The notes under the pieces: model-generated | Seen by the model: the letters and a program-made list of their open reading frames with translations, nothing else | What the model was told of the DNA's origin: nothing | The model's database searches: none | NCBI GenBank assembly: GCA_030141605.1 | Contig: JAQGDQ010000034.1 | Span: 496,001-560,000, forward strand | Source of the DNA: Tubiluchus corallicola | Lineage: Eukaryota; Animalia; Priapulida | DNA length: 64,000 nt | Reading direction: 5' to 3' | Shown here: one piece after another, positions 2,178 through 61,004 of the stretch | How positions within the stretch are numbered: position 1 is the first letter of the stretch | How the letters are laid out: each line of letters begins with the position of its first letter | Position numbers and translations under genes: made by a program

Positions 2178-2193
2178 ATGATAATTATGCATG
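2178..2193 (+). CDS. PIFO: Pitchfork/CIMAP3-like protein, putative coding exon 1 of 8 (MIIMH)
   Basis: ATG follows an in-frame TGA, and the exon ends at a phase-1 donor G|GTAAGA that matches the phase of exon 2. Full model: join(2178-2193,2600-2727,3626-3724,4879-5009,6789-6912,7314-7426,8295-8370,9340-9408) = 756 nt, 251 aa. The start could instead be the ATG at 2187. Confidence 0.55.
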
Positions 2194-2599
2194 GTAAGAT
2201 TATTATAATTATACAAACAAACTAATATGATTATGATATAGTATACACATAAACTGTCCTGGAATTGCGAGCCTTAAGAAACTTTATTAAGTTTTTATAA
2301 TAATTTCAAATACAATTAATAAAATGCAATATAGCCCGCTTCAGCTGATAAGTTATATATAACTCCATATAATATTGCCTATATGACTATTTCTTCTTTT
2401 CAATTGGTAAACAATCAATCAATAACTTGCCATTTGGTAACTTGAAAATCTTTGATTCATTTCAGTTTTTATGACTTAATTTGCACCATACCCGTTCTTG
2501 AAGTTAGGCAAAAATTACGTACTCTCTGCAAAAATATGGAGATAGTTATATAAATTAAAATATTTATAATACCACATTTTAAATTACAATTTACTTTAG

Positions 2600-2727
2600 T
2601 TGCATTTGGATCTACACAACGGAGGCCTTTTCTTCCAAACATTCCACCTTATTCACGAATGGGAATATCATTGTTTGGTCAACCAGGAAAGAGCAACGCT
2701 GACCCGGGTCAATATAACAACCATCTG
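2600..2727 (+). CDS. PIFO: Pitchfork/CIMAP3-like protein, exon 2
   Basis: Acceptor ttactttag and donor gtaaaa. Encodes (V)AFGSTQRRPFLPNIPPYSRMGISLFGQPGKSNADPGQYNNHL, resembling the FGTCQQRKLFP...GPGCY N-terminus of pitchfork. Confidence 0.82.
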
Positions 2728-2939
2728 GTAAAACAAAGTAACCTAACAGATAAAAAATAAACTATTATTTACCTATATTTTTTCAGTCGTACACGTTGGA
2801 TTTTGTAATACAATTGCAGCAAATTTTTGACATTTTATTAATTCTAGCACTTAATTATTATAACTTGTACATAGACAAACAAAAACAGGCCTATATTACA
2901 TTAAAAATATATGAAAATATCTATTGCAACAAGTTGAGA

Positions 2940-3186
2940 ACAGGCACCTTATAAAAGGACCTGAGAACCTTATAACAGGATGTAGAACTTTATGACAGCA
3001 TCAAAGAGCCTTATAACAGGACCTGAGAACCAAATAACAGGATGTAAGAACCTTATAACAGGACCTAAGAACCTTATAACGGAATCTATTAACCTTATAA
3101 CTGGACCTGAATACTTAATAAGATGATATACGAACCTTATAACAGGAAATGGGAACTTATAACAGAACCTGAAACCTTACAACAAC
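2940..3186. repeat. Degenerate minisatellite, ~21-bp unit (gaaccttataacaggacctga), ~12 copies, in an intron of the pitchfork-like gene
   Basis: The ccttataacagga core recurs at about 21-bp spacing. Confidence 0.85.
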
Positions 3187-3625
3187 ATCTTGAATGACAC
3201 TGTAAATGAATACTATACACTGAGACACTGAACTAGCAGAGGTGATTTAGTATGCAGCATATCATTAATAGTAGCAAACAGGTTGAAGCATCAGCAGTTG
3301 TACAGCTATGGTGTGCATCATGGGAAAATTTGAGTCAATGCGGAGAATTTGAGTACGTTGTCAATCACTGACAACCCAACATGGATAGAAATATTTGATC
3401 ATCTCTCTCCCCTTTGGAGCCAGGATTCAAACAGTTATAACTACATGTATACTGTACAATATTACAAAGGCAGGTTTTGTGACTGTGTCCTGTAAAACAT
3501 CAGGTGTCGATGCTAGATGATGGATGTCCAGTTTTGAACAATGGCTTACAATGACCCTGTTATCAAAGTGAAAGTTCAGGATCCGGAATATTGTTAATTC
3601 TTATTTTAAATTCCTTCTTTTGCAG

Positions 3626-3724
3626 TTTAACTCATTCATTCATTTAAAAGACCAGCAACCAGTGAGTAAAAAAGGATATGTTATTGGCGCAAGAAGTGCT
3701 CCCAGATTTGGAGCTGAGTATAAG
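3626..3724 (+). CDS. PIFO: Pitchfork/CIMAP3-like protein, exon 3
   Basis: Acceptor ttcttttgcag and donor gttagt, 99 nt. Encodes FNSFIHLKDQQPVSKKGYVIGARSAPRFGAEYK, which contains the SKKGY.xGARxxxRF pitchfork motif. Confidence 0.85.
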
Positions 3725-4878
3725 GTTAGTCGTTATTATGTGCATTGTCTATAATAAAACTTGAAATGCCAGTGTGAACGTAATTAAGGTTTTTAGGAGT
3801 ATGCCAGCTTCTAGAGGCACACATGATGAAATATATCTGTCTGGAACAACTTATCTGATCATTGCTCATCTACAGACTTGATAATTGCTGTTTTTCAAGT
3901 TTGTCACATGCACTTTTTAATGAATGTGCTTATGCAGTTTTCTGTTTCACACAAACTGATCATAATCCTGCTCTCGTGCGCAGGTTCTGTACGAAAATTT
4001 GCATGAGGCAAAACCAGATTAGAATAATGAAAAGCAGTCATTTAATCATGTGTCATATAATTAATGGCTTACTGAGGTTACCCATGACACAGTTTGCTCC
4101 ATACAAAAGTTGCTGTGTACCAGCAAAATGTGTATGAGATAGTTTGCATTTGACAATTTACTACAGACAGTTTTTTTACCATGTGCGACTACTACTATGA
4201 GATAATTTAGTATAATTCAATTCACGTTTTATGTTAGCATTAATACACTAAAAAAGGTGAGTTTCTACACTTACACAAACACTATCAATACCAGCTCTCC
4301 TAATTACATGCAACAACAAGAAAATATTAAACGCTGCTCCTAACAAGTAAAAAAAAAGACTTCCACGAACAAAAAAATTTGAAGTATATGGCATATCACA
4401 GTCATTTGGAATATTTGCCATCAGAGCACAATTCTGGTAAGCAGAAGCAGATCATAACACTTGCATCATATATGAATAAAATGTGCAAATTAAATCTACG
4501 CACATCTGAGATGCGCTGCAATTATAAATAAGTTTCTTTATACTATTATTACGTTACACCCTAAGTTTCTCTAGAACATATTTGTCAAAATTAACACCTG
4601 CAGTGAATTCCAGTACAGTGAGTGTAGTGCATTGCCACATTGGGATTTACTTAGGTACATAATTGTAGCTCTACAAAGAAAATCAGGAGAGGTAAACTTG
4701 GTCCTAGAAAATTTGGTAACCACTTCATGAATATGTAAACATGTCTCGGAAAACTTGCCACTAAATACCAGCCTGTGGATGCTAAATTATAGTATATGTG
4801 GCGTTAAGCAAGCTGGTCGTGTCAGACACATCAGTATAGTGGCTGCAAATCATACAGATACATTTCCATTATTTGCAG

Positions 4879-5009
4879 ATGTTCATAACTCCAGGTCCTA
4901 TTGTTTATCAGCGTGACATTAATGAGCGCACCACTGTGAAACCCGCAAACGCTCCATTCGATTCGCGAAGCGAGAGATTTCCGTTTTCAAATGCTCACGC
5001 TTGTCCAGG
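4879..5009 (+). CDS. PIFO: Pitchfork/CIMAP3-like protein, exon 4
   Basis: Acceptor atttgcag and donor gtaatg. Encodes MFITPGPIVYQRDINERTTVKPANAPFDSRSERFPFSNAHACPG, an STPG/SHIPPO-type PGP.xY repeat. Confidence 0.85.
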
Positions 5010-5995
5010 GTAATGACAAACGAAACTAGTTTGTCTAAGTTTAGCATTTTTCTTGTTGTTATTAATAATATTAATTTCATTGATAAAAACCAACATTTCC
5101 TTCCACTTAAAGCATTACTAATGTAAATGACAATTAGTATCTTAAGAAAAACATGTTTATTTTTAACATACCACTTGTCATTTATATTAATAATGCTCTA
5201 CATGGAGTGAAATGAAATGTCTGTAAAGTAAGTTAACAATCAGTGTCTGAGAGAGTGGAGAAAATGACAAAGAAACTTTTGATCTTCAAGTTTTTTAACT
5301 TTTTGGTTGTTGCAGCTTGATATGCACTTCTTGTTGCTTGGTCAAATGATGTAAGTGTTTGGCTCTTGTATTCCTAAGTTCTGGAGCTCATGCAGATTTG
5401 CTAGTCAGACTTTATGAGTTTATTGCGTACCCTGCTGTATACCAGGCAATGAGACTTGTTTCCAGAGGAATATCTGCGTCAAACAACTATGAAAAATCCT
5501 TTAGGAGAAACATCATTTTTGTATCGCTAAACTGGTATTATGCTCGATATTAATTGTTCTTCCATGTTCGTCACGTTGAATAGATGCATTTGTCAGTTTT
5601 CTCATACGTAGATCTTTTGTTCTAAATTATGTTTCCTTGTTGCATTGCTAGTGACAGACAAGGCTGTTGTAATGCTGTAATGCATGTCTTAAGATTTTAA
5701 AGTGCAGTAGCAGTAACAGTTATGAAATTGTGTTGTCTTCAATCATGTCATTAATTTTGACAGCTCACTTCTTTCCTGCCACTACTTTCAATTTTTCTTC
5801 CTAAGTTATTGATGCATAAACCTTTTTTACCATCTACAGTTTCGTGACCTTTTCCTTGTTTTGTCTTCATGCCACCAGTTTTTCTCTGCTGCCGTACGTG
5901 CATCTGATTTGATGCATATCATCTGAGTTCAAGTGTGAGTTTTTAGTATGAGTTTTCTTAGAACTGAAAGAACACTAGTTGGATAGCCAGCTGAT

Positions 5996-6315
5996 CAGGG
6001 GCGTAGCCAGGTTTGGAAACAAGCACACAAAAAATGCAGCTGACACATGAAGCAATTATATGTTTGCCTATGCCACAAAAGACAGTGTCAGCATGTGACA
6101 AGAAGATATTATTATAATTCGATTTTGTGGCAAATTGATACTTGATTCAATCAGTTAACCTTAACGCATGAATTGCTTAAATTACTCATTTTAAAAACAC
6201 GGGAGGCAGGTTGATCAAATAAAGTAATAAGGCAGGTAGTTGTAAAGGTGCCAATTGTGAAAAATGTTCTCAGGGAGAGGCTGCTCTCCTTTTTCCTTTA
6301 TTAGCTATGCCCCTC
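5996..6315. mobile_element. hAT-like MITE
   Basis: Termini caggggcgtagc ... gctatgcccctc are imperfect inverted repeats. Flanks cagctgat / ctgctgat form a near-perfect 8-bp TSD. Confidence 0.55.
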
Positions 6316-6788
6316 CTGCTGATATAACAATGGAATAAATTTGTTGTGCTTGTTCTGGCACTAAATGCACTGAACTTGTATTAGCAGCAACTGTGTCACG
6401 TGGAAATTTGCTTACAAATGCATATATATACGACAATGAACGTAAATAAACTAACAGAAGTTTCAGAGATTTTTACTGAGTATTTAGCTACATCACGCCA
6501 CTGCCTGGCTTCTTTTTGGCACTTTAAAGGATTGATTTTACAGATTTAATACTTTTTTCAAATTGCATTTTCATTTCAAAAGCATTATGTACACTTTGTT
6601 TAGTTAATCAATGGACATTAATAATTGAAGGAATGAGACAAAGAAAGAAAATATTTGATTTTTTTTTCATTACGTGGCAGTCACACTGATTTACATTCAT
6701 ATTTATTACTTTCTTATGCAAGCTTGCTTATTTACTGCCTGGCTAGTTGATACATTCACAGGTTAATGATTATAATTCATCATTCTAG

Positions 6789-6912
6789 ACCTGGTACTTA
6801 TGAACACGAGGTAAGCAGAAACAGAAGAATAAATTTCAAGGATTCTTTCGGAGGTCAGCACGTTCTTCAGGCTCCGGTCACCATTAAGTGCATGGTCAAG
6901 AATGAGGATGTG
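6789..6912 (+). CDS. PIFO: Pitchfork/CIMAP3-like protein, exon 5
   Basis: Acceptor cattctag and donor gtcagt; the phase-2 junction gives PG-PGTY. Encodes PGTYEHEVSRNRRINFKDSFGGQHVLQAPVTIKCMVKNEDV and lies inside ORF 6766-6954. Confidence 0.85.
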
Positions 6913-7313
6913 GTCAGTACTCGTTACGAATTATTGTTCATATCAACTATTTAACGTTGCTATAACTATAAATAAGTAAACAAAGCAAATAAACCTGATT
7001 GTATTCATACACAAGTATTCCTCCTACAAGGTTACGTCATGCTCTTTCTAACAATCTTTATAGTTCCCTTTGTTAGAGCTTGAAATGGGGTGATGGTAAC
7101 TTCCCTAAAATCCTCTAAAAAATTGCCAAAAAACAAGAACTGCTACCAGGAAATGTGGTGACCTAATTTTCTGTTGTTATGCGGAAGCAATAAACAGAAC
7201 ACAGCACAACAGTATTTAACACTTTATGATGTTCAGTAGTTACTGTTTGACATTTTATTTTTACTGCGTTTGCAAAGTTTGCAATACATGTTCAACCGAT
7301 TTTTACTGTTTAG

Positions 7314-7426
7314 TGTGATTACTGTCACAAGCCACCAATAGGTGACTACTATCAGTACAGAAGACACGTCATTTGTCGGCAATGTTTCGCCTACAACATT
7401 AGATACGGAGAGAAAAGATCTAGAAG
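7314..7426 (+). CDS. PIFO: Pitchfork/CIMAP3-like protein, exon 6 (two CxxC pairs)
   Basis: Acceptor ttttactgtttag and donor gtaaaa. Encodes CDYCHKPPIGDYYQYRRHVICRQCFAYNIRYGEKRSR and is phase-compatible with both neighbours. Confidence 0.8.
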
Positions 7427-8294
7427 GTAAAAAAACAAATGAAGCACTTATGATGCTGTTTAGATTTAGAGGCAAATGCCAGTCTGTTTTCCAACCTTTG
7501 ATTTATAGTCGTGTGGTAAACTCATCGTTCAGTTTACAGCCAGGATGTAGTAATTACACTGCACAGCTGTTTTATCGCTGCTTCATAACAAGGTTGCTTT
7601 TCCGTGTCATAACCTTTAGAAATGTTGCTGAAACTCTAACACAAATTTTGTAGTAGTGTTCTGAATTCAAGTGATCAAAAAATAACGTGTACATATTTCT
7701 AATACAAAAGAATGATCAATTATGTGGCAATTAAAAATGTTTGCTGGTTGTGATAATCAATTTTATTATGAAATTAAATTTTTGTCCATATATTTGTAGA
7801 AACTAAGTGTAGCGAGTAAGAGCCCATGCATATATATATAAATATATTAGTTTTAATATATGGATAGTTAATTATGTATTAGAGCAAACTGTTGAGCCTG
7901 TCACAGAGAAATTCACTTGACTACCAAGGGCAATGTCTTTCCACATTTGAACCCGGGCTCTACCCCATTTTGCAAATGTATTTTATCCTGAACTCGCTGA
8001 CTAATCATTTTAAGCCTAATTAAGCCATGGAAACACCAACTAAGCTTCAGTCATAGTGCAGCACAGCTTAGCTAATCTCTGAACAAGTTCTGTTGTACTA
8101 TTTTTGACACATATCTGTTTATTGAGTACGTTTCGTTGTTGTAAATATTCGTTTTACTGTTTTTGTACAACATACTAATATATTTTTGGTGTTTTCAATG
8201 GAATTTTGAATACTGAAATACGTGAATTGAATAGAATTGCTAAGTCGCCAATTTTTCATTGAGAATTTTCACTTATATACTGACATTTTTCCAG

Positions 8295-8370
8295 CCATTT
8301 TCATACATTCAGAAAAGTCCGAGACTGCTCTAGGATGCATGAACATCAAGGCACTAAAGCTGCCATTCAG
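8295..8370 (+). CDS. PIFO: Pitchfork/CIMAP3-like protein, exon 7
   Basis: Acceptor tttttccag and perfect donor CAG|GTAAGT. Encodes HFHTFRKVRDCSRMHEHQGTKAAIQ. Confidence 0.82.
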
Positions 8371-8619
8371 GTAAGTTTATCACAAAGTTATTACCAGTGT
8401 ACTGCAAAAATTTTAAAAATCGAAACCAAAAGAGACTAAAACATGTTCAGATGAGTATGTTTTAGATGACTTCTTAAATTTCTAATCATAGTTTAGGCTG
8501 TCATACTACTATTAGAGAACCCCAGCACAGTGTATGTTTTTATTTTAACTAACACTGATTGTCTGTCTTTTTTGTTATGATGGTCAATGTTTATAAAAAG
8601 GCAAAATAAAGATTATAAT

Positions 8620-8852
8620 ATACTACTGCTGCTGTTGCTACTGCTAATACTACCAACTACTGATACTGCTGTCTACTGCAACAACAACAACAACGGCAAT
8701 AGTAACAACAACAGCAGCAAGAGCAAAGCAATATATAGCAGCATCAGCAGTAACAACAGCAGCATCAGCAGCAACAAAAACAGCAACAGCATCAACAACA
8801 ACAACAACAGCAGCAGCAACAACACCAACTACTACTACTACTAATAATAATA
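8620..8852. repeat. Compound trinucleotide microsatellite (CTG/CTA, CAA/CAG, CTA, TAA), intronic
   Basis: Directly visible; it accounts for the spurious ORF 8587-8844. Confidence 0.9.
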
Positions 8853-9339
8853 AGCCGACATAGTAAAAATTTTATCTGGTGTGTAATTTTGGCTGATTGT
8901 TATGCAGCTTTATATTTGAATTGCATTTATAGCTATAAATAAATGTAATCTAACCAATAGACACGGTTTTTAGGTGCAATACTGTATTTCGGTTTTTTAT
9001 TGCATGTTTTATTGGATAATATATACAGTAATAACCAATCATTACAAATCTTAGCATCCAATAATACATGCGAATTTTATTAGCAGAAGTAGCAGTAAAA
9101 GAACTCTATGCAGTACTGTTATGCAGATGTTGTTGTGGCAGGACTGGGACCTATCTCAATATCTAAGCTAATCCTCTAAAATGACGCAGAAGTGCCCTAG
9201 TCATATTTATCCTCCCTCAGTGAGGTTAGCAGATGATAGATGATGTCACCCAGAACTTTTCCTGGAAATCACCACCACTAGAATGTCAAACATTTTAAAG
9301 GAAGAATCGCCATTGTGATATAATTTTTCTTAATTTCAG

Positions 9340-9408
9340 CTTATTACCGAAAAAGAACTGAAGAAGCAGCGGCAGAGAGAAGCATATCTTAGCCTTTACT
9401 ACTCATAA
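9340..9408 (+). CDS. PIFO: Pitchfork/CIMAP3-like protein, last coding exon
   Basis: Acceptor taatttcag. Encodes LITEKELKKQRQREAYLSLYYS*, with the pitchfork-type C-terminal AYLSLYY motif. AATAAA follows at about 9705. Confidence 0.85.
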   Translation, partial: LITEKELKKQRQREAYLSLYYS

Positions 9409-11887: not shown

Positions 11888-11902
11888 CTGAAAAAATAGA
11901 AG
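11888..11902 (-). promoter_or_regulatory. 3' splice acceptor of a 5'-UTR intron (or outron) of AMPK gamma
   Basis: Minus strand reads ttctattttttcag|gtata, 138 nt upstream of the first ATG. Confidence 0.65.
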
Positions 11903-12835
11903 TAAAAAGATTAGTCATTAAATAAACATTACCCTATGCATACATCTCAAACTAAACTTTGATCACAAGTTTATTGAATTGAAACTACTAAAATTTACAC
12001 AAAAACAGCATCAAAATTTTATAGAAATATATAGAAGAAAGACCTGCTAAAAGGCGTAAAATATATTTTTTTATTCCATATCAATGAATACAATGAAGTT
12101 TTAGCTGCAAGCAGAAATAAAAATTGGTGCATAATCAAGTGCAGTCATAGCTACACATCAGAAAAAATGCAGTGCATAAAGGTGATATAAATCTATAAAA
12201 AAATCTCAGTTTTAATTACATGCGATTTTTGTTCCAACTTCAGCCCTTCTACATGGCAAACAGGTATAACATTTACATCATAAATGAGCAGGTCATAAAC
12301 TGTGTGAGCAAACATGGCATTTTTGTACGACAGAAGAAACACAATCAGCTATACTTGTCACTACTTGACTCATGTCTAGTATAGTGTCGATATTTGCCTA
12401 GCGATTGAAGAAACTGTTGTGATATAAGTGAAATTCTGGTTACACGTTATGTAACTTCTCATGCCGGGCATCAGAACACAGAGATTTGATTGTGGCTAAG
12501 TGTTAAGTGGTTAAGTTGCCTTTCAAAAGCTACCAATAAACATTTAACAAGTGTTTATTAGAATTACATACTTGGATTCACACTACCACGATCTACTTCA
12601 GGGAAAGTAATATCCGCTAGCCTAGCAGATATTACATTCTCTGTCTACATGTATTAGTATTATTGACACGTAATGAATTAATAAAAACCATTCAGTAGTT
12701 AAAGCCACAATGTCTAGCTACCTATTAAAAGAACCTTATTTGGACAATCTAAATAGAAACGCCAGCCCAACATGAAATTAAGAGGCTTTTTCAGAATGTA
12801 CAAGACTATACTCAGACTAGGTACAAGGTACAAGT

Positions 12836-17822: not shown

Positions 17823-18959
17823 ATTTGGCAGTGGTCTGGCAGGATGCAAGTGATATTCTTGGCCAGGCCCCTCCAAAATCCGTCAAGCACCCTAATCATT
17901 ATAAATAATAACAGTAATTTACACATGAAATTGTGATAACAAACACGTAAAGGCTCGTGTTTGGGCAATCAATGAAATTCAAAATCAAATTAATATTCTA
18001 TTTTTGCTAACTAGCTGTGACAGTCTTGGACTTTGTGGCGACCACAATCAGGTGGTCTTCTTGGTAGTTCCTCTATCAGTGTCAGACTGCCAATGAATAT
18101 CACTCTGCAGAAGAACTGTGATTTCAATCGCAATAATGAATTAGAAATCGGACATCGAAGTTAGTATGACAAACTATAGTACAGCTACATGGATGCATTT
18201 GTCTACTAATGCAGGATGTGGTATTTTATCTGAAAGACACCAAATCTGTTTCCGATGTATTAAAACTGGCACTCCTTTTCCTGTCAAATGTAATGTTAAC
18301 TTACAATACTATAACCTGATTATGTATCCTGTTGGTATTGGCCAGGTCTTGATCAGTTTTATTCCATTCAGCCATGACAGAACTTTTAATGTGTTAATAG
18401 TACGTACCGTGAGTTGATACTCATCTTGATAACTTGTTATAATACGACACATTCAGATTTCTATTTAACTCTAGTGAACTTGAGTCACTTATCAAGTCAT
18501 ACAGTTGAAACTTCCACTGCAACAAATTGTCTATCACAACAAATGTGACCGTAATTTAAGCAGTATTTATGACTAGAGAGACAACTTTTGAGAGAAACAT
18601 AAATAAAAAACGCGAGACAGAAAACGAGATAAAACGATTAACCGAAATTTAACAAGGGGGATAACTATGGCAGTATGGGGGAAAAACCAACGTAATATTA
18701 TACTAGGCTTCACCCGTCGATCTAATGATTACTAATAATAACCCTTAATCAGAAGAGGTTATAAGTGCTTTGAGTCGACAGTACAGCACTGCGTCATGCA
18801 AATTAGTATGGAGGATTACTATACTATAGTATAGTACAGTACTGCACAGTCCAGAAAAAACGATCCCTTGAATTTTTATATCATTATCAATAAACGTACG
18901 TGAATTCTGGCACGTAGACACGCCATATCTATGTTTATGAAAAGATAACCAAATTATAT

Positions 18960-19260
18960 ATCCGCTTTCAGAATCCTATTTCACCTTCAGAATTTAACCT
19001 TCGCAGATTTTACGAAACACAAATTTCCATATAACACCTGCAATGACAAAATCGACAACGACCAGCGTCACCCGTTGCGTTTGGCAAAAAGCACGTACTG
19101 TTTCGCGCATGCCAGTAATGCTTACATTGACGTCATCAGCTGATAAGCAGCAGTAACAGGAACTCCGTCACAGATCGTCGGTCATAGACATGTGGCGTCA
19201 GTACCTACAGCTGAAAGAAGTTGCTGCGTCATCATGTTGTGATGTCATGTTCAGGGAAGC
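18960..19260. promoter_or_regulatory. Candidate promoter/first-exon region for AMPK gamma with a CRE site
   Basis: Locally CpG-rich, with palindromic TGACGTCA at 19128-19135 and TGCGTCA half-sites. A minus-strand donor-like AG|GTGAAA lies at about 18979-18986. The assignment is inference only. Confidence 0.3.
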
Positions 19261-26569: not shown

Positions 26570-26591
26570 GCCCTTTTTGCATTTTTTGCAG
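26570..26591 (+). promoter_or_regulatory. 3' splice acceptor of a 5'-UTR intron (or outron) of PEX14
   Basis: ccctttttgcattttttgcag| lies 16 nt before the ATG, with an in-frame TAG (26596-26598) in between. Confidence 0.7.
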
Positions 26592-30265: not shown

Positions 30266-30382
30266 ATGTCTTCCCCGGATCTTGTAGCAGTCTGGGAAGT
30301 TATGCTAGCCGACGGTGTTCATCAGGTGGAGTTTGAGCATGGAACTACGTCTGGTAAACGTGTTGTAAGAGTGGACGGCAAG
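30266..30382 (+). CDS. FAIM: Fas apoptotic inhibitory molecule, coding exon 1 of 4
   Basis: Encodes MSSPDLVAVWEVMLADGVHQVEFEHGTTSGKRVVRVDGK, with donor AAG|GTGAGA and an upstream UTR acceptor cttcttttcag at 30211. Model: join(30266-30382,31503-31725,33563-33612,34726-34875) = 179 aa. Confidence 0.93.
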
Positions 30383-33562: not shown

Positions 33563-33612
33563 AAAAAGATACGCTTAACGTGTGGTGTAATGGACAAGTA
33601 CTGGAAAGTGCG
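33563..33612 (+). CDS. FAIM: FAIM exon 3
   Basis: Acceptor tttatttttcag and donor gtaaat. Encodes (E)KDTLNVWCNGQVLESA. Confidence 0.92.
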
Positions 33613-34725: not shown

Positions 34726-34875
34726 GGAGAGTTTGTAGACGATGGCACTGAAACTCATTTTAAAATTGGCGAGAAGGATGCATACATCAAGGCAGTGAGC
34801 AGTGGCAAGAAGCGAGAAGGAATCGTACATTCTCTAATCGTGGAAGGACAAGAAATACCGCTAGCTACTGAATAA
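34726..34875 (+). CDS. FAIM: FAIM last coding exon
   Basis: Acceptor ttttcctag. Encodes GEFVDDGTETHFKIGEKDAYIKAVSSGKKREGIVHSLIVEGQEIPLATE*. Confidence 0.93.
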   Translation, partial: GEFVDDGTETHFKIGEKDAYIKAVSSGKKREGIVHSLIVEGQEIPLATE

Positions 34876-41000: not shown

Positions 41001-41452
41001 TGATTATCGAAATTTGAAGTCTAAATGCTATTTAATTAGTACCTTCGGTCGTTATAACGCCCACGCGACCAATAAACATATGACTGTAACAAAATATAAT
41101 ATTGACAGCTGCTGCTGTTGTTTGCCAAATTATTTCTATACAAGTCAGTTAAATGCTCGTCAAGACAACAATAACATTGTCGAAAGGAGATAGCCCTCAT
41201 CTCGTATCTCAAACAATGAGGACTCATACCAACCAAATAATAATGAGCTCAAACTGCTGTCATATAGTATGCATCCAGCAGATTCAATCTGACATGAGCA
41301 TTAATGATTGAGGTATGACACGAGTCAACAGAAGTACTCATGACTAATATCTATAGAAGCTTACGATATTTACCAACAGGTAATGATGCTGTTGGAAGTC
41401 AACTATTATCTACCACAGATTCACACACTAGTTCTCCTAGTACACACTAAAA

Positions 41453-44400: not shown

Positions 44401-47167
44401 AAGCAACCTCAATAGATTCCAATGAAATTGCAACAGCTGTAACATTTTTCGGCAAAGTGGGTGCATCAGTTGGTGTGCGTATCTGTAACTTCCTGCTCCA
44501 AGGACCACCACCCCTTTTAGTATAAGCTTGCACAGAAAACAGGTACACCGTATTTAGTTCTAATTTATCTATAATTATAAAGTTGTTACTAGTATTGTGT
44601 AGAATCTTTCCATCTTTATCGTTTTCTTTAAAGTACTCCACCAAGAATCTCGTTATGTTTCCATTTCTATCTTCCAATGGAGGTGGCTGCCACAACACAC
44701 GCAGAGAATCGGGTGCCTCTAACATGTAAGTCAGATTAAAAGGAGCAGCATCTGGTATTCCATCTGGCGTAGTCAGCACTTTGACAGCCTCTTCACCATA
44801 GCCATCATTGTTCCTAGCTGCAACTTTAAACACATATGTAGTACCTTCATCCAACTCTTGTAAATTTATAGACTGAGTGTCAGGTTGACCATCCGTGGGA
44901 ACTTCGAGGATTTCCTGGACTTGCTGTCGCTGTGTGCCATAACGAATCCTATAACCTTGCAGCTGTCCATACATCTTTGTTGGTTTGCTGAACTCCACAA
45001 TAGCATTAATTTGCCCGTTCTTTTGTTTTAGTCTGACATCAATCTTAGGTGCATTAGGAACGCCACCAGGTGTCGTAACAATTTTGGGCTTGCTGCGATG
45101 ACCGTCTCCCGCTGTTGTAAAAGCAGCAACTTGTACACTATATCGAGCCTGAGGTGCCAGACCACCAATTTGCCACTCTTCTGCTAACCTATCTGGCACT
45201 ACAACTTTTCTAGGCATGCCTTCTGGTGTGGCATCATGCGGGGAAAGGCGTTGCACATAAATATTATAACCACGAATAATACCATTTCTGCCTGCATTTT
45301 GCGGCGAGCGCCACTCCACTCTCATTGCAGTAACATTTAAGGCGTCGACTCTAACACGTTTTGGCTCTAATGGAACAAACCTATTAGTCTTAACTTGAAT
45401 AGGATGAGTACTAACACCTTCACCCAATGGAGATCGTGCGGCAAGCCTAATCGTATACATTTTGTCTGGTATCAAGCCACGCAGCACGTAGGAATTAGCT
45501 GGTTGAATGCTAATGTGATTTTCCTTGGTGGACACAGAATTATTATAATAAAGCTCATACCGAATAATGTTGTCTGCTGCATGAAAAGGAGTTTTCCAAG
45601 ACAATTCAATGGCAACGGGAGAAATTGAAATGCCTTTTAGCTCTATTGGATTTGTTGGCACGCCTTGTTGAGTTTTCACCTGTATGGGAGTGCTTGGTGG
45701 CCCAGCACCTATACTGTTATATGCAAGGACACACACAGTATACATGTGCTGAGATTTTAGGTTACCAATTGTCACCAGTTGTCCATTTTTAACATCTTTG
45801 AAAGGCCACAGATTCATGGGAATACTAGCATTATCGGTGTAGAAAACTTTGTAGCCTCTGATTTTTCCATTGGGTTTTGTAGGCTGCGTCCACTGTATGA
45901 ATATACTGTTTGAATTGATAGGATATGCTGTGATATCCTGTGGCTCACTGGCTGGTGCAAGTTCGCCTGTTGTTGCATCAACAGTTTCACTTGCAGGGCC
46001 CCGGCCAACATTGTTCATGGACAAAACTTCAAACTCATACTCTGTGTAAGCATCCAAGTTTGAAATCGTGAAACTGTGATCGACAATATCGGTCACCTCA
46101 TGATATCTGTCACCACTAAGAGATGCTTTATATCGTACAATGTAACTCACAACTGTGTTATCATCAGGTGGAGACCAAGATACCTTTACCGATGTCGAAG
46201 TTACGTCAGATAGTCGAACATTAGATGGTGGCTTTGGTAAAGCTTTTACGACAACATGCGAGATTGCTTCAATCACTCCGAGGTCAGAAGCCGCCTTACA
46301 TGTATAGTTACCTGACTCTTGGACATTGGTCAACACAAGCACATTTTTGCCAATAGGAACAGTTTTATCAGGTGAAAGATCTTGATCACCAAGCTTCCAC
46401 TTGACATATGGCATTGGGGATCCGACTGCTACGCAAGTAATATTAACATCAGCCCCAGGCATGACTTCATAGCTTTTAGGTGGTATGGAGAAATGCGGAG
46501 AAACTCGACGGACACGGACATACAGATTAGCATCAAACGAATAAACTGTGCCTTTATAATTACTTGCAACACATTCGTACTCGCCATCGTCTTCCTCCTT
46601 AGCGCCAGTTATTTGAAGAGATCCAGCCATGCCTTGCTCTAATATGGTATAACGAGGATTTGACATATCGACTGGAATCAGATCTTTGAGCCAAGTTATT
46701 TCAGGCGTGGGATCGCCATCAGCTTGACACAGCATAACAGCATTTGTATCCTTTTCGACTGCTTTCAGCTGAGGATGGCTGGTGATGTGAGGAAAGCCTG
46801 GTGGCACTTGATCCGGCTCGACGATTTTAAGTACGGCATTGCTCTCTACAGCGCTGCCTATGCCATTGTCCGCTCGACACGTGTACTTTGCTTCATCCTT
46901 TTTGGACTTCAACGGGTCTATGCGCAGAATCGAACCTTCTTGCATTGGTATCACCATGTGTCTCTGAGCACCAATGTTTATGGGTTTACCATTTTTCATC
47001 CAGCTAAACACCGGAATTGGATTACCAACAGCCTTGCAGAAGAAGCTGATAGTGCCCCCGTTTACGCCAATTTCATCTCTCGGGGGCTCAATAATCTCTG
47101 GAAGATTCTGAGCATAGGCGACACAGACTAGGGTTGTGATAAGTGAAAAAAATGTGACTATATACAT
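41453..47167 (-). CDS. Lar: LAR-family (type IIa) receptor protein tyrosine phosphatase, single-exon CDS, 1904 aa
   Basis: Signal peptide MYIVTFFSLITTLVCVAYA, three Ig domains, about eight FN3 repeats and a TM helix (LLIIGPIAAVLCVIAVIALILVLY). D1 has KNRY/WPD/HCSAGVGRTG, D2 has WPE/HCSAGVGRTG, and the C-terminus is EYLGSFDHYAT. The ORF-track start at 47179 is a TTG; the first in-frame ATG is 47167, with an in-frame stop at 47216-47218. Confidence 0.96.
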   Translation of the reverse strand: MYIVTFFSLITTLVCVAYAQNLPEIIEPPRDEIGVNGGTISFFCKAVGNPIPVFSWMKNGKPINIGAQRHMVIPMQEGSILRIDPLKSKKDEAKYTCRADNGIGSAVESNAVLKIVEPDQVPPGFPHITSHPQLKAVEKDTNAVMLCQADGDPTPEITWLKDLIPVDMSNPRYTILEQGMAGSLQITGAKEEDDGEYECVASNYKGTVYSFDANLYVRVRRVSPHFSIPPKSYEVMPGADVNITCVAVGSPMPYVKWKLGDQDLSPDKTVPIGKNVLVLTNVQESGNYTCKAASDLGVIEAISHVVVKALPKPPSNVRLSDVTSTSVKVSWSPPDDNTVVSYIVRYKASLSGDRYHEVTDIVDHSFTISNLDAYTEYEFEVLSMNNVGRGPASETVDATTGELAPASEPQDITAYPINSNSIFIQWTQPTKPNGKIRGYKVFYTDNASIPMNLWPFKDVKNGQLVTIGNLKSQHMYTVCVLAYNSIGAGPPSTPIQVKTQQGVPTNPIELKGISISPVAIELSWKTPFHAADNIIRYELYYNNSVSTKENHISIQPANSYVLRGLIPDKMYTIRLAARSPLGEGVSTHPIQVKTNRFVPLEPKRVRVDALNVTAMRVEWRSPQNAGRNGIIRGYNIYVQRLSPHDATPEGMPRKVVVPDRLAEEWQIGGLAPQARYSVQVAAFTTAGDGHRSKPKIVTTPGGVPNAPKIDVRLKQKNGQINAIVEFSKPTKMYGQLQGYRIRYGTQRQQVQEILEVPTDGQPDTQSINLQELDEGTTYVFKVAARNNDGYGEEAVKVLTTPDGIPDAAPFNLTYMLEAPDSLRVLWQPPPLEDRNGNITRFLVEYFKENDKDGKILHNTSNNFIIIDKLELNTVYLFSVQAYTKRGGGPWSRKLQIRTPTDAPTLPKNVTAVAISLESIEVAWTPVDNPSVIGYVVYYATEAVEDKSLWQKKDIDGSRIASTVIENLETRATYAILVGAKTQNGIGLLSQMEFVTVDPKVVPMNVLTEIENENIVLSWKPPVAVIPISYQISYRAVKKFTNERNQDETVILEPRVIIVEHAGLEHVIHDMIPNAVYHFNISTVTADGVQTPVRKTLLTPPKAPTVIQAPRYQGQTPHGTIKLQLFKASDEHGPIHHYLVAIIPTDMIGKGPDQYTTAELSGDYGRHVSSGKVPGSAPYIAAKFSPNSYPTHPRYFEVGDGGRYGGYFNRELVKNQKYKVFVRAVVTSRGEELEKSSPFSKEIGLGMDMLKVATGDDDMLLIIGPIAAVLCVIAVIALILVLYRKRRRNLPKSPEPSKIAYMDAPPHLTDPVEMRRLNFQTPAMINHPPIPISNLAECIELLKANDNLKFSQEYESIEPGQQFTWEHSNTDYNKHKNRYANVIAYDHSRVVLEPLDSEVGSDYINANYCDGFRKQNAYIATQGPLPDTFGDFWRMVWEQRSASIVMMTKLEERNRIKCDQYWPARGTESFGPIQVAILEVTELATYTIRTFLISRAGYADKREVRQFQFTAWPDHGVPEYPTPVLAFMRRVRSLTPPDSGPIIVHCSAGVGRTGTFIVIDAMLERIRHDKTVDIYGHVTCLRAQRNYMVQTEDQYIFIHDALLEAVSSGSTEVPARSLYGHMQHLMQAEPGENVTGMEKEFKKLANMKAQPSRFISANLPVNKFKNRLVNILPYEATRVCIQPVRGVDGSDYVNASWIDGYRYKNAYIATQGPLPETTEDFWRMLWEHNSTIVVMLTKLREMGREKCHQYWPGARSSRYQYFVVDPIAEYNMPQYILREFKVTDARDGQSRTIRQFQFTDWPEQGVPKSGEGFIDFIGQVHKTKDQFGQDGPITIHCSAGVGRTGVFITLSIVLERMRYEGVVDMFQTVKMLRTQRPCMVQTEDQYQFCYKASLEYLGSFDHYAT

Positions 47168-47433
47168 TACTGAGATCAAATATTTCCAACTAATGGCTAA
47201 ATTACATTTTGGTACTTAATATCTTGAGAACATGAGATCATTGGGCTGTGATAGTTAATCTACTTATACAGTCTTGCTCTGAAATTATATTTTTAGTTAA
47301 TATCTGCTTCCTGATAGTTTCTGAGAATTCCCTGGAGATGGCTTCTCACATTGTCCTTGCTGGCCAACAGCTAACGATTAAAGTCAATGGCAGTGACAAA
47401 AGGTTTCCCCCTTACACTTGCATATTCATAAAC

Positions 47434-47452
47434 CTGCAAGAAAAATAAAATA
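47434..47452 (-). promoter_or_regulatory. 3' splice acceptor of a 5'-UTR intron (or outron) of the LAR gene
   Basis: Minus strand reads tattttatttttcttgcag|gttt, 266 nt upstream of the ATG. Confidence 0.7.
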
Positions 47453-48416
47453 GTATGAATAGTGAAACAGAAAGCATCAGAAACAAGCAAGCACAATCGC
47501 AATATAAGCTAAACACCTGTTTACCAAGTTACTTCTGTACCACTTTTCTTCCATATGCTATATATTTCTTCCCATAGTCCACATAAGAGGACTTTTATTA
47601 TTACAGGAAGTTTTAGAACATGAAAATTGATGACATCTGTTTTTTGACATGTACAACCCGGCTGGCTGATTTTTACTAAACCAATGTGTTATTACTTACA
47701 AGAACAAATCTCAGCCTTTTCACTTGTTTCAATAAATTATGCATAATTGTGGTATTAAGAGAATTTTAAAAATTTTTAACGAATTGCTTATATACTAGCT
47801 AACGAGTACTATAGACCACACTATGCACTTAATCCTGACTATTGCGAATCTACAGATCTACACTTATAATTCCATACTTATGACATTGTCAGCTGCTTGC
47901 ATTGAGGGCTGGATTATATAGAAATGATAAAGTTTTACGGCCTCAGAAATAAAGTTAAAAGTCCTTATAGCTTTATAGTTTCGTTAAACTTCTTAGTCTC
48001 TTCACTCCTTTCATTTCAAAATAAAACCCTTTTATTATTTATAATAAAAATCATAACTAATAAAGAATCTTTATTTGGAAATGTCTATACATGCAGACTT
48101 TTTTAATGACTTTATTACATGTCTGTCACAAACATAATTATAAACTCACCCACAGAGAAGTAGGACTTTTATCTGTTATATTCATCCAGACCTGTGCTAC
48201 CCAGGTAATTTTACCCTTTTGTGATTAAAAATTTAAAGAACCTAAGTACTACAGCAAAGATTATTTGCCAACAGTGAATTTTGCAGAACTCATTACTTTA
48301 ACAAAATAATTTTTTTCTCCGAAAGAATCTCAAGAAAATTTAGGTGCTACAAGCTACAATTGTTGCTTGTTAGAAGTCAGCCATGTAGTTGACACAACGT
48401 ACAATATAAATTAGTA

Positions 48417-58800: not shown

Positions 58801-61004
58801 GTCGAAAAAATAGAGTGGAATCTAACATAGACATCGCTTATAAATACAGTGACGACTTCAGCATTGACTCTCAGAGTACAAGTTCTACCATGAGCACTGA
58901 CAATCACATAAAATCGATACCATTCCCCTTTTCACTCTGCACTGGGGACGTCTATGGCAGTCCAGTCATGATTTTGCCATGGTGGTTTGTGTATATCGCT
59001 TGGTTGTTAACTATTAGCGTTTCATTGATTTGTACTTATTTAGTCATGCTTTATGGTTTAAAATTTGGTTATCAGAAAAGTGTCGAATGGCTCTTGTCAA
59101 TGTTGGTGTCAGTTATGTCCAGCATTTGCTTAACTCAGCCAGCAAAAGTTCTAATAGAGGCTCTAGTGTTAACGTTGATATTTAACCATCCGCCTGAAAT
59201 AGAACCTGCAATGGCCGAATTACAGCTATTGCAAGTTGAAGAAAGTAACAGGCTGCAATCTGACTGGCTGGTTAAACATCGAATTATTACAGAGCGACGA
59301 TATAAATACAGACCTCCAAAGGAAAGTGATATTGCTGTTATCAGAGAAAAACTTTTACAAAAACAGAACTTCAATAAAATAATCAGCGAACTTCTCCTTT
59401 TTAGCTTTTTCGCTTTAATTTTATCAACCCTAGTTTTTAACTTTCGTGACAAAAGCTTTTTCTGGGTAACCAAAACTGTTAAGGATCTTGCGATTAATGG
59501 AGCTTACTATCAAGGAAATACAACGTTCGCTGCAATAACGGATGTTCCAGGTATATGGGACTATGTAAGTAACTCTTTGCTACCAAGTCTGACGGCAGGG
59601 AGTCTTTATAACGGGCAACCAGTACCATTTGTAGTCGCTGCTGATTTAGTTACGAGGTTAATAGGAGTTGTCCGATTTCGTCAGGTACGAGTGAAACCAG
59701 GCCAGTGTTCTGTGATTTCAATTTTTGAACCGTATGGTCGAAAGTGCACCGGTGAATACCATTGGCACCGAGAAGATACCACCTCCTACGGGCCTGGGTG
59801 GAGCTACAGTCGATATCCCCGCTATCCTCCTGATCACTGGACATTTCAGTCTAGTTTGTCATTGTGGACACCTGCATTCCCTGGTAGATTTCATTTATAC
59901 AGTGGAGGCGGTTATTTGGTGGAACTAAATCATTCTACTGCTGATAACAGAGTCATTATTGAATCACTGATCAACTCGAGGTGGATAGACGATCGCACTC
60001 GCGCTTTAATGATTGAACTTACTTTATTTAATTCTAACACAAATTTGTTTAGCATTGTTATTTTGATAGTAGAATTTACTGGTCTAGGTACAGTAACTCC
60101 ATTTTATAGCATCTCCACCATGGACATGGCAAAATATGCCACATTTTTAGATGTACGCGTCATGGTAACTGAAGGTATTTGTTTAATTATACTAATTATT
60201 TTCATATGTATGGAAGTTAAGAAGTTCAATGTAATTAAGTTTGAATATTTTCGTAACTATTGGAATTATGTGCTATTAACTATAATGATTTTGTCTGCTG
60301 TTCGTACAGTAGTTTTCTACAGAAGAACAATTGCAGTTAAAACACTTTTAGAGAAGAACTTTAAAGGGAAGCAGTCTAGTTTTGTTAACTTTTACGAGGT
60401 AGTAAGTTGGCATTACTTGTTTACAATAACATTGGGCACACTCGTCATCAGCGTAACAATTTATCTTTGGCACATGTTACTATTGAACAAAAGTATGTCA
60501 GTTTACTGGTTAACTTTATCACTATCCTTCCGACCTATGTTACATTTTTGGTTGCTAGTATTTATTTTTTTAGTACCGTTTGTACTGGTACTGACTACAT
60601 TGCTTTCCGCAAACATACAAGAAGATTTTAGCACGTATGCTAAAACTCTTCAAACTTTAATACGCATGATTTTCAGATCAGGTAAATTTTGTGCCTTGGA
60701 GACCTTACAGTGGGGACTGGGCTCACTGTTCGTTGTTATTTTCATATTGATATCAATAGTCATTTTGCTTTGCATGTTAAGAACAATATTAATGCTATCG
60801 CATCGAATTGCAGTGCAACGTTGGTTAAACACGAAAAATCATTATGATATTTTTTATCATTTCTATCATTATATCACTAAGAAAATGCCCTGTTTACAGC
60901 GAAAACAAGATGCCGCAAAAATATTACCAAGTCGAAGCATCTTTCGTTTCACGGGATTTCCTCTACATGATAGATATTCGATTGATGAGTCTAATTTCTG
61001 CTAA
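52857..61004 (+). CDS. Polycystin-1 family (PKD1-like/REJ) receptor-channel protein, single-exon CDS, 2715 aa
   Basis: Domains in order: signal peptide, WSC-like domain (YLGCY...CGC...C...CG), REJ module, Cys-rich insert, extra PLAT, GPS (CLYWN...W...GC...HCKCYHMTIF), TM1, canonical PLAT (YLIITFTGLRQGAGTTAKV...IWHDNSG), HLWASVF..P.RSSFTRVQRLSC, TOP/polycystin domain (RFRQVRV, YSGGGY, WIDDRTRAL) and channel TMs. Confidence 0.93.
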   Translation: MAKFWIALVLCFSSLPKLCLNTVTFYLGCYVRWADLDIPDIPSYMDVCADYCNENNSKYALMGKTCGCSRKYSTETSLAGNESYCATRCNTRNLNKNYVCGRKTHWSVYVVGDRCPNRTMTGINCKQNKVEGLTIVTNKLNTSFTRSYYRVIIYAEQLSSDVTFVLNLGRDKSHALNYSHFFPANLIHNYPEKYDLQLVSNLLNGSIRGFFYQCDYGFTKGSHKINITGSLWKHNNIWSALDTVNVVVLCNVDVIIINAGYNKDNPTKFKEAEAFNLTTSVTVPNCSINYSMSLVWHFSLVPESDMDSCLKGSQLANETTLETDSDKFITVDTGILAPGTYTVSLTPTFTLTQSGLNSKSYKPTSTLGWIIISSKLEPIIAGEFLRNISWKDNLTMDASASYDACVATNGVDTNLTYKWSCYIALDMFSYSFTTGIGCIERNTTALSFNKPTFTISAKTFPQDSVLVFTLELGKPNRPSEIKQQVVKVIPAGAEIIQINCLKNCRRSVNKAESLILQSVCVSCNNDTLSTGIYYWTLRARSLLNDGSTLLNITAFAIVSKGTDVIVLKKDVFTPGHVYLIEVKGGPAISIPGTAFYEVFVYEPPPFKTACSVIPSEGIALKTKFSLQCDNSSFVSTFFTYDFYYRNFAGKTEMKGSKGDFLYSSTEPILPPITLPAGEGKILLQATNIRKETFLVEYNVTVLPFLCNETDKVSEVECKTYILNVLKNLTSLTSMKNETDILDFIQTLKVIMEEVSKIRKQNETEDPEFVQKVTEMKSEIQTLVANQLIQVPVSTHKVMKFLSSMMSQVITSDADLNPEIIVPITAKFHDIATFMKQSAEDINVNDLEDTTSALLLAVSIILGEITKRTSKSNDEKFKQLSKRELQNTFPHKRENVTQVKNIILKSIDTIQNAASATLRHKIVYDEPTTFTTNLLTLRVARQKISHLGGSELQLNGFGHFQLPSAAALSKMQEHEDELELEILSIKQNIFTPFESTLHSSIPIASLSIGRQLRHSRTEFDELSEPLEFFMDVAADAKYSKSSFVKLENHLFNKYITVHSFVLTAHTTAIMSFQDMPVGVALKVVTKKGKRPVIENFNDGSTVFHIPAINGGYYSRQFADNIVSFHNEQNVSIKYFIGILFDSYYEPSCFHPSLRCKSENVECMAGIYSDCDGSLHEATCKVNASSICSVDNCMQKYACYNDWVENCKNISRYCDSQHRQCLSVLDYKCSKHNVKCSHDCSTSLEIETCLQICTKKHQRCRQSSQSKCETVKSCVRNSDSACIDTLLVETKAQHCRYMMLKCDEQSAGECDTNFISCNATCYQCLPKCDAEVTQNCVKACKNLRTSCYSMANQVCRQYVIKNNDNCANIPWKTNEEQNEAATPAFQEPDLTYFAFLHTADIKDSGTKARVYLRLHGNRRITNELLLSKRTFKRATVEKFTIESKSIGKLEKITVWHNNQGIGAGWLLEKIVVKDEQLEFTCPCMTWLAGSPLENEKIFSCYVVANLTPTVNPPIQRVDFNLSFYSVKCLYWNISLYNWLDGGCFVGPLTTPSRIHCKCYHMTIFTGAIVVKPNQIDPFEDVVLFATFFDNPVIIVFMVVVWLLYLTLLIYARKNDQKDTTRVGVTVLEDNNPIDKYTYLIITFTGLRQGAGTTAKVTFLIEGKNGNSLPIKLYHKDRSTFDSGADDWFLMTTHQCLGEITAIEIWHDNSGYDPNWFLKLVILKDVQTNAVWCFPYNNWLAIDRGPQTVKCRLFPAFKHELVRFTHIFAYRALRGFRDGHLWASVFYRPPRSSFTRVQRLSCALSLMLTAMLSNIMFYGIATNKPETQIIIGDIQLSWTQIYIGVASVLLTFPINILIVQMFRYTKPYQGKSVKHFSFGWCFKRNRDYTGTQSLSESDFTRKREQTAKENVILFKSENDWLKWINNTRQIEFETLKEIQQNILEARRIIEILPKRVPALDQNRRSTRKSVISLKRNPYIYSTHISRKNRVESNIDIAYKYSDDFSIDSQSTSSTMSTDNHIKSIPFPFSLCTGDVYGSPVMILPWWFVYIAWLLTISVSLICTYLVMLYGLKFGYQKSVEWLLSMLVSVMSSICLTQPAKVLIEALVLTLIFNHPPEIEPAMAELQLLQVEESNRLQSDWLVKHRIITERRYKYRPPKESDIAVIREKLLQKQNFNKIISELLLFSFFALILSTLVFNFRDKSFFWVTKTVKDLAINGAYYQGNTTFAAITDVPGIWDYVSNSLLPSLTAGSLYNGQPVPFVVAADLVTRLIGVVRFRQVRVKPGQCSVISIFEPYGRKCTGEYHWHREDTTSYGPGWSYSRYPRYPPDHWTFQSSLSLWTPAFPGRFHLYSGGGYLVELNHSTADNRVIIESLINSRWIDDRTRALMIELTLFNSNTNLFSIVILIVEFTGLGTVTPFYSISTMDMAKYATFLDVRVMVTEGICLIILIIFICMEVKKFNVIKFEYFRNYWNYVLLTIMILSAVRTVVFYRRTIAVKTLLEKNFKGKQSSFVNFYEVVSWHYLFTITLGTLVISVTIYLWHMLLLNKSMSVYWLTLSLSFRPMLHFWLLVFIFLVPFVLVLTTLLSANIQEDFSTYAKTLQTLIRMIFRSGKFCALETLQWGLGSLFVVIFILISIVILLCMLRTILMLSHRIAVQRWLNTKNHYDIFYHFYHYITKKMPCLQRKQDAAKILPSRSIFRFTGFPLHDRYSIDESNFC

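Follow-up and report, generated by a model that had tools for sequence, protein, structure and literature searches.

Intron-free coding sequences of four genes beside intron-rich neighbours in the priapulid Tubiluchus corallicola

The window analysed here is a stretch of 64,000 nucleotides of the Tubiluchus corallicola assembly. Six genes were compared in it, four of which have an unbroken coding sequence (CDS).

2178..9408, plus strand: 7-intron gene; 8 exons, 738-nt CDS, 245 aa; intron-retaining neighbour
11749-10316, minus strand: AMPK-gamma CDS; 477 aa, no coding intron
26608-27693, plus strand: PEX14 CDS; 361 aa, no coding intron
30266..34875, plus strand: FAIM; 4 exons, 540 nt, 3 repeat-rich coding introns of which one is GC-AG
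47167-41453, minus strand: LAR CDS; 1904 aa, 3 Ig, 8 FN3 and 2 PTP domains, no coding intron
52857-61004, plus strand: PKD1-like polycystin CDS; 2715 aa, REJ, two PLAT, polycystin and channel domains, no coding intron

The original prediction of four intronless and intact CDSs of about 16.4 kb was confirmed. AMPK-gamma, PEX14, LAR and the REJ/PLAT polycystin form four stop-free frames with a sum of 16,383 nt, and the expected Pfam domains were present in all of them. No hidden in-frame intron was detected in the four genes by homologue coverage and acceptor scoring. LAR showed no run of at least 8 residues without an aligned residue among 120 homologues, and such runs were confined to the N-terminus in AMPK-gamma and PEX14. 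Acceptor-like sites scoring at least 8 were absent from the AMPK-gamma, PEX14 and LAR CDSs. The polycystin CDS contained four, each within homologue-covered stretches; its residues without homologue cover were 1-151, 1102-1285 and 2698-2715. The true start of AMPK-gamma is probably Met23 at position 11683, the equivalent of which begins the related sequence P0244 (full length, 93% identity). Full-length relatives of PEX14 were found at 84% and 78% identity. PEX14 orthologues are normally multi-exon in animals. Among the six genes, intronless and intron-bearing CDSs could not be told apart by GC, GC3 or CpG.

The two neighbours retained their introns. The exons of the first gene could be joined into a single frame free of stops, and its introns are GT-AG and measure 401-1779 nt; the seven predicted introns were recovered, and the CDS came to 738 nt instead of 756 nt. 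Its label "pitchfork-like" denotes a putative resemblance that no tool used confirmed, and single exons gave no family match. FAIM was rebuilt from four exons as expected (three introns in 540 nt), and three of these exons matched Pfam FAIM1. Its introns measured 1113-1837 nt, so that both genes fit the predicted range of about 0.4-1.8 kb. The claim that the introns are laden with transposable elements held for FAIM, whose intron bins had read depths of 630-4850 compared to about 185 for single-copy DNA. The identity of a LINE-like piece in the window was not confirmed by family search.

Intron density was therefore 0 in four genes and 7.8 introns per kb in two. Under an even spread, the probability that all ten introns fall in the two small genes was 4e-12 (2e-9 without the polycystin). 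This rejects an even spread and counts against a chance pattern, in which introns were lost singly by genomic deletion or repair, or in which the intronless state is ancestral. In most of the animal phyla that PMC11649378 surveyed, 3-25% of the annotated genes are in fact intronless. However, isoform boundaries of homologues, which show the multi-exon state of LAR and AMPK-gamma homologues, fall inside these CDSs, and we consider chance or ancestry a very unlikely explanation.

To the reads we compared the PEX14-FAIM stretch, the part of the window with direct read cover. One 2034-nt contig of run X1 (26052-28085, depth 194.9) covered the intronless PEX14 CDS and both flanks at the depth of nearby introns. 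In X3, a second sample from another study, two contigs also covered PEX14 without introns; they overlap by 9 letters near 27100, a spot that X3 does not bridge. For LAR, X1 contained 0.96 of the sampled words, compared to at most 0.89 if 25 introns remained, and AT-rich non-coding DNA flanks each of the four CDSs on both sides. These results oppose the idea that cDNA sequence was incorporated into the assembly. Although read cover is direct for PEX14 only, and X1 is possibly the source of the assembly itself, such an artefact is extremely improbable.

In the search for a parental paralogue, carried out for PEX14, none was present at 80% nucleotide identity or more in run X1, which was read whole. 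Among the homologues listed for PEX14 and AMPK-gamma, this lineage was represented by the close relatives P0005, P0006 and P0244 and the more distant clade member P0245, and a further copy of more conservative sequence was not among them. This argues weakly against the idea that the copies are old retrogenes whose diverged, intron-bearing parents persist at other loci, in which case the gene families would not have been purged of introns. Coexistence is in keeping with the statement in PMC4772013 that most retrogenes live beside their parent, with the detection of copies at 80% or above only, and with the long stem of the AMPK-gamma clade in a tree that lacks Priapulus and leaves the lineage unplaced. 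We regard it as unlikely. The 3 kb that follow each of the four CDSs contained no poly(A) remnant (at best 14-15 A in 20), which speaks against retrogenes but does not decide the matter, as tails are expected to decay in old copies.

In keeping with selection on PEX14, its domains were better conserved than its tails, and three X5 pieces (177-238 nt) aligned without gaps inside its CDS at 87-89% identity. Short pieces of X6, guessed to be RNA, matched in PEX14 and behind LAR at about 87%; a reading as expression was rejected since repeats matched too.

LAR provides direct support for an mRNA template.

45371..45382, minus strand: FN3 cassette junction after codon 597 of LAR; lacks a cassette exon known from other animals

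The gene lacks an FN3 cassette of about 100 residues, with exact ends where arthropod isoforms skip it. The cassette was present in 64 of the 120 LAR homologues and skipped in 56, and its position was exactly after residue 597 in 46 of the 64 carriers. The junction is identical to that of short isoforms from Tribolium madens, Zophobas, Amblyomma and Anticarsia, and isoform pairs within one species differ at this site. The Priapulus, Capitella and Liolophura LAR models keep the cassette. LAR also has the short form at two other recurrent isoform sites, residue ~403 (18/22 species groups) and residue 21/22 (3/22). By sequence, LAR thus has the form of a spliced mRNA isoform, a mark of an orphan retrogene that was observed for this gene. 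Loss of a cassette exon at exact ends is not predicted by genomic deletion of introns. Arthropods still splice this exon alternatively; here it is lost, and, if the interpretation is true, LAR is frozen and cassette switching is no longer possible.

The closest named relative, Priapulus, appears to keep its introns. Its LAR model carries a 5-residue insert at EMGR/EKC that occurred in 1 of the 120 homologues (103 plain, 16 unmatched) and may be read-through of a splice donor. P. caudatus is described as rich in minor introns and as having conserved introns (PMC10639083). In a quick tree of 19 rows, LAR was nearest to Priapulus among those sampled, with no nematode, kinorhynch, tardigrade or deuterostome included. 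The predicted origin from an mRNA template gains support from the exon-skipped form of LAR, from PEX14 being intronless at single-copy depth in two samples, and from the apparently intron-keeping Priapulus. We consider a spliced mRNA template behind the unbroken CDSs highly probable.

The polycystin had been named the weakest case, given that mammalian PKDREJ is already intronless. PKDREJ is indeed an intronless REJ-domain polycystin of similar size, but in sea urchin each of the ten REJ genes is divided into 20-52 exons (PMC1934368), and the caveat is therefore weaker than claimed. In contrast to PKDREJ, the polycystin carries two PLAT domains; of the ten matches looked up for it, the named one with the highest identity was a Priapulus PKD1L2-like model. 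Priapulus XP_014681546.1 showed 45% identity over 375 aa and the same two-PLAT layout. The intron loss was probably independent of PKDREJ. The numerically close Priapulus accessions for LAR and polycystin were tried as a sign of synteny and ruled out, as they lie on contigs of different length (674,237 vs 675,951).

Upstream of the CDSs, splice acceptors and a candidate promoter were predicted.

11888..11907, minus strand: predicted AMPK-gamma 5' UTR splice acceptor; last intron base 11888, score 14.5, chance within distance 0.003
18851..19250, no strand assigned: candidate promoter between AMPK-gamma and PEX14; CpG-enriched windows
26572..26591, plus strand: predicted PEX14 5' UTR splice acceptor; 16 nt before ATG, score 10.5, chance 0.006
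47279..47453, minus strand: predicted LAR 5' UTR acceptors; 266 nt (47434) and 111 nt (47279) before ATG

The AMPK-gamma score exceeded all 10 coding acceptors used for training, and the two LAR acceptors scored 13.8 and 10.2 (chance 0.011 and 0.044). No strong upstream UTR acceptor was found for the polycystin. Given these strong 3' splice sites, AMPK-gamma, PEX14 and LAR are predicted to be intron-free in the CDS only; "fully intronless" thus holds for the coding part and not for the predicted 5' UTRs. FAIM has an acceptor 54 nt before its ATG as well, so such acceptors are not peculiar to intronless genes. The upstream donor search yielded a number of candidates of equal rank, from which no UTR exon could be firmly assigned. 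The predicted acceptors may be ancestral, new or trans-splice sites; the literature search returned no paper with priapulid spliced leaders in its title.

The four intronless genes form two head-to-head pairs, AMPK-gamma/PEX14 and LAR/polycystin. The candidate promoter region of the first pair contains TGACGTCA at 19128 and GCGCATGC at 19105, which we take to be a CRE-like and an NRF1-like motif, respectively.

We propose, at a probability of about 0.5, that the four CDSs are full-length reverse-transcribed copies of spliced mRNAs that landed at new sites, gained upstream non-coding exons and promoters, and replaced their multi-exon parents. After the split from Priapulus caudatus, a retroelement reverse transcriptase would have copied germ-line mRNAs of up to about 8 kb. 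Each copy would have inserted at a new site and then been driven by a nearby promoter, perhaps a bidirectional one, via a spliced 5' UTR. Selection would have retained the copy, and the multi-exon parent would have been lost. FAIM and the 7-intron gene would never have been replaced, which would produce the pattern of no introns or many. Gain of upstream exons is known from mammals: 25-53% of expressed mammalian retrogenes are multi-exonic, mainly via new upstream exons (PMC4772013). A difficulty lies in the length of the transcripts. Reverse transcriptase often stops early and would not readily leave a pair of full-length copies, each of about 8 kb, in a stretch of 20 kb.

The same CDSs could have arisen by conversion in place to completion, in which cDNA recombines with the native locus and the 5' UTR intron alone remains. 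With every intron that is lost, the gene matches the cDNA perfectly over a greater length, which speeds up the next loss; genes that never start losing introns keep them all. Loss biased to the 3' side predicts a spared 5' intron (PMC3652778), and the strong predicted acceptors 16-266 nt before the starts of AMPK-gamma, PEX14 and LAR fit conversion in place just as well as retrogene replacement. The skipped LAR cassette follows just as well from conversion, which does not depend on one cDNA of 8 kb and also accounts for the lack of a visible parent. Against it, none of the six genes is half converted, and LAR has also lost the coding intron directly behind its signal peptide, at the residue 21/22 isoform site. 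The reverse-transcriptase model of intron loss in PMC3652778 is similar in being mRNA-templated and precise, with adjacent introns lost and 5' introns spared. However, the cases published there concern one to a few adjacent introns per gene, not whole CDSs of 6-8 kb. Conversion in place is a possible route that we hold tentatively, and we lean towards retrogene replacement.

Retrogene replacement has precedents, and the distinctive remodelling process that had been claimed is not new in kind, as orphan retrogenes are already known. A close one is amphioxus SYCP1, a large and normally multi-exon gene whose coding sequence lies there in one exon and whose 5' UTR is spliced, at a bidirectional promoter, head-to-head with its neighbour (PMC5803294). 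That account concerns one gene of about 3.2 kb for which new site and parent loss were demonstrated, whereas the present stretch has four genes in 51 kb, two of them of 5.7 and 8.1 kb, for which we infer both. Mammalian orphan retrogenes number 25 human cases (PMC3548309; count per PMC5470649) or 10 families (PMC4772013). They are functional intronless copies of conserved genes, often with new upstream exons, which the present genes probably resemble; they are rare, at about 0.1% of human genes. At such a rate, four intronless genes among six neighbours would have P ~4e-11. In Ciona, an invertebrate lineage with retrogene replacement, retroduplication with parent loss is reported as relatively common (Kim et al. 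2014, per PMC4772013 and PMC5803294). The Ciona genome is described as compact and fast-evolving (PMC5803294), in contrast to the neighbouring introns of 0.4-1.8 kb and the repeat-rich DNA found here. Thus, the length and density of intronless genes in this stretch are unusual among orphan retrogenes.

For one run of four in six to occur in a genome, about 5-8% of its genes would have to be converted (2-3% without the polycystin), assuming independent conversion and 2,000-10,000 such runs. As a tentative proposal that we would not put above a minority chance, this lineage stripped coding introns from several percent or more of its conserved genes, a whole gene at a time and including CDSs of 6-8 kb, while keeping a repeat-rich genome with long introns. 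The route would be an unusually processive reverse transcriptase or self-accelerating cDNA conversion, and single isoforms would have been frozen. Compared to the roughly 0.1% converted in human, the alternative to such a high share is a local landing site, and a local cluster of retrogenes fits equally as well as gene-by-gene purging across the lineage.

Whether whole-gene intron loss proceeds by retroposition with parent loss or by cDNA conversion in place has long been asked, and most tests of it have drawn on just a few introns or on some dozens of short retrogenes. Either way, the present lineage would offer many large events for tests of synteny and germ-line expression against the intron-rich Priapulus caudatus. 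It would also inform the limits of cDNA length and the cost of losing alternative splicing. Our literature search of open papers turned up no account of conserved genes being intronless in large numbers in priapulids or relatives, and the main text of the priapulan genome paper PMC10280001 does not contain "intron", "exon" or "retro".

Behind the LAR stop codon, a further conserved region was observed.

39176..41452, minus strand: probably a long 3' UTR belonging to LAR; some of it is conserved in a related sample

An X5 contig aligned to the 564 nt at 39176-39739 with 42 differing letters plus 26 gap letters, and further X5 and X6 pieces matched within the same region.

A six-frame scan of the window yielded four long stop-free frames with 16,383 nt of coding sequence in sum, in agreement with the unbroken CDSs of the original prediction. 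Two intron-bearing genes are located among them:

11749-10316, minus strand: AMPK-gamma, 477 aa, single stop-free frame
26608-27693, plus strand: PEX14, 361 aa, single stop-free frame
47167-41453, minus strand: LAR-type phosphatase, 1904 aa, single stop-free frame
52857-61004, plus strand: polycystin, 2715 aa, single stop-free frame with REJ, two PLAT and channel domains
2178-9408, plus strand: 8-exon gene, 7 introns in 738 nt, exons rejoining as a single frame
30266-34875, plus strand: FAIM, 3 introns in 540 nt, exons rejoining as a single frame

The intron density predicted for the two neighbours held, with a CDS of 738 nt instead of 756 nt for the 8-exon gene. Its proposed family name, pitchfork-like, found no confirmation. 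The claim of TE-laden introns was borne out for FAIM, whose introns are repeat-bearing (depth bins of 630-4850). An even spread of introns along coding sequence was rejected (P = 4e-12; 2e-9 without polycystin), and the intron-free gene cluster is real. FAIM intron 2 (31726-33562) has a GC donor and is a GC-AG intron.

Homologue cover and a scan for acceptor-like sites make hidden in-frame introns unlikely in the four CDSs. Every LAR stretch of at least 8 residues was matched by an aligned homologue residue, and the uncovered part of AMPK-gamma and PEX14 was the N-terminus only. No strong acceptor-like sites were found inside these three CDSs; polycystin contains four, each within homologue-covered regions. 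A cysteine-rich segment (residues ~1102-1285; 56160-56710) precedes a first PLAT domain, which in turn lies ahead of the usual second PLAT.

Contigs of public sequencing runs were aligned over 25900-41200. In run X1, possibly the source of the assembly itself, a single 2034-nt contig joins the PEX14 CDS to both flanks at a depth of 194.9, close to that of nearby single-copy contigs (164-185). Run X3, which comes from another study and another sample, includes FAIM intron 1 and thus behaves as DNA; it agrees with X1, containing PEX14 as two gapless contigs. X5, a related sample (~88% identical) guessed to be DNA, gave three gapless pieces of 177-238 nt within the PEX14 CDS. For LAR, X1 contains 0.96 of the sampled words, compared to at most 0.89 expected with 25 introns present. 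The read evidence covers PEX14 and, by word share, LAR; intronless PEX14 is genomic, and an assembly artefact behind the cluster is hardly credible. In X1, no further sequence adding depth over the PEX14 CDS was detected at an 80% likeness cut. Between FAIM and the LAR 3' end (35098-38163), very high-copy repeats reach depths of up to 66,500 versus ~185, and their inverted joints suggest MITE-like elements.

Full-length relatives of AMPK-gamma (93% identical) and PEX14 (84% and 78%) were found, with PEX14 domains more conserved than its tails; judged from these sequences, the function of both was probably kept. About 0.56 kb located 1.7-2.3 kb past the LAR stop is ~93% conserved in X5.

One FN3 domain, ~100 residues long, is missing from LAR past residue 597. 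This cassette is present in the Priapulus, Capitella and Liolophura models, and short isoforms of Tribolium madens, Zophobas and Amblyomma omit it at the same junction. Among 120 LAR homologues, 64 carry the cassette (46 of them exactly after residue 597) and 56 do not. Isoforms differ near residue ~600 in 11 of 22 species groups; among the four rows listed, the difference is 99 aa in three from Anticarsia and just 3 aa in one from Aricia. Sitophilus has a 100-aa difference nearby. The window LAR is also the short form at residue ~403 and at 21/22, which are isoform sites in 18 and 3 of the 22 groups. LAR matches one spliced isoform, with the cassette exon removed at its ends, as expected from an mRNA template. 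Intron deletion from DNA would have left the cassette exon in place, which favours the template; piecemeal intron loss is very improbable. The exon may instead have been lost earlier and independently, but this costs a second event. Ig2 (residues ~178-185; 46600-46640, minus strand) has three extra residues relative to annelid, mollusc and chelicerate rows, and beetle rows have two. We take this site to be the position of mini-exon A of LAR-type phosphatases; the copy may have captured a microexon permanently.

An mRNA template behind the intron-free CDSs, as originally predicted, has a probability of about 0.85-0.9; the route is divided. At roughly even odds, our preferred route is retroposition into new sites combined with parent loss: a spliced-mRNA copy would lose all coding introns in one step at a new site, and the multi-exon parent would then be lost. 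Retroposition is described as most parsimonious when every intron is missing (PMC3548309, in part). However, two ~8 kb copies so close together are demanding, and new site and parent loss are putative. Self-accelerating conversion in place, a more tentative reading, accounts for the same facts and for a spared UTR intron. Survival of old intron-bearing parents elsewhere is unlikely.

A small acceptor model, trained on the window's 10 coding introns without a held-out test, predicted sites upstream of AMPK-gamma (11888, score 14.5; 138 nt ahead of Met1, 204 nt ahead of the likelier Met23), PEX14 (26591, 10.5; 16 nt upstream of the start) and LAR (47434, 13.8, 266 nt upstream; a second, 10.2, 111 nt upstream), with chance values of 0.003-0.04. 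FAIM also has a strong upstream acceptor; polycystin and the 8-exon gene have weak ones only. Because of these strong sites, AMPK-gamma, PEX14 and LAR probably undergo either 5' UTR splicing or trans-splicing. In five of the six genes, an acceptor-like site lies a short way upstream of the ATG (2121, 11888, 26591, 30211 and 47434; four strong, one weak), for which spliced-leader trans-splicing in this lineage is a possible source. The intron-free genes are arranged as two head-to-head pairs, and AMPK-gamma and PEX14 are separated by DNA that includes a CpG-enriched stretch with promoter-like motifs. A search behind the four CDSs, out to 3 kb, detected no poly(A) remnant. Retroposition fits the new upstream exons that mammalian retrogenes frequently gain (PMC4772013, in part), and it fits amphioxus SYCP1, which has a single coding exon, a new spliced UTR and a bidirectional promoter (PMC5803294, in part).

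The predicted AMPK-gamma 5' UTR intron holds a 182-nt unit in three tandem copies, 97% alike (12836-13382). Upstream of PEX14, a GC- and CpG-rich piece (24401-25060, minus strand) presumably resembles the terminal part of a LINE reverse-transcriptase gene, with no Pfam match. Its plus strand carries the best donor upstream of the PEX14 acceptor (25032, 9 of 9), so a PEX14 UTR exon may derive from the antisense element.

The best LAR match was Priapulus caudatus XP_014681582.1, and both were sisters (SH-aLRT 100) in a quick 19-row phylogeny excluding nematodes, kinorhynchs and deuterostomes. The Priapulus LAR model, alone among 120 matches, has five extra residues at EMGR/EKC, which we assume to be an intron site conserved in PTP domains. 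If this insert is splice-donor read-through, as we infer, LAR intron loss postdates the split from Priapulus. Across 375 aa, the polycystin was 45% identical to a Priapulus polycystin model, which shares the two-PLAT layout and the cysteine-rich segment. Together, the LAR and polycystin matches make a priapulid or close kin the likely source animal. P. caudatus is described as rich in conserved minor introns (PMC10639083, in part).

Known orphan retrogenes include 25 human cases, 10 families from a later study (both in PMC5470649, in part), amphioxus SYCP1 and a Ciona set known via citing papers; the present cluster differs from these in gene size (5.7 and 8.1 kb for LAR and polycystin) and in density. 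No report of intron-free conserved gene sets in priapulids was found in our literature search. At the human rate, four of six neighbours would have P ~4e-11, and for one such run to occur per genome, 5-8% of genes would have to be converted; the alternative is a local landing site. Directly ahead of the polycystin start (50898-52650), a GC-rich repeat of ~770-990 nt, present as two or three diverged copies (72-90%), may supply or disturb its promoter; a shorter relative lies near 62810-63000.
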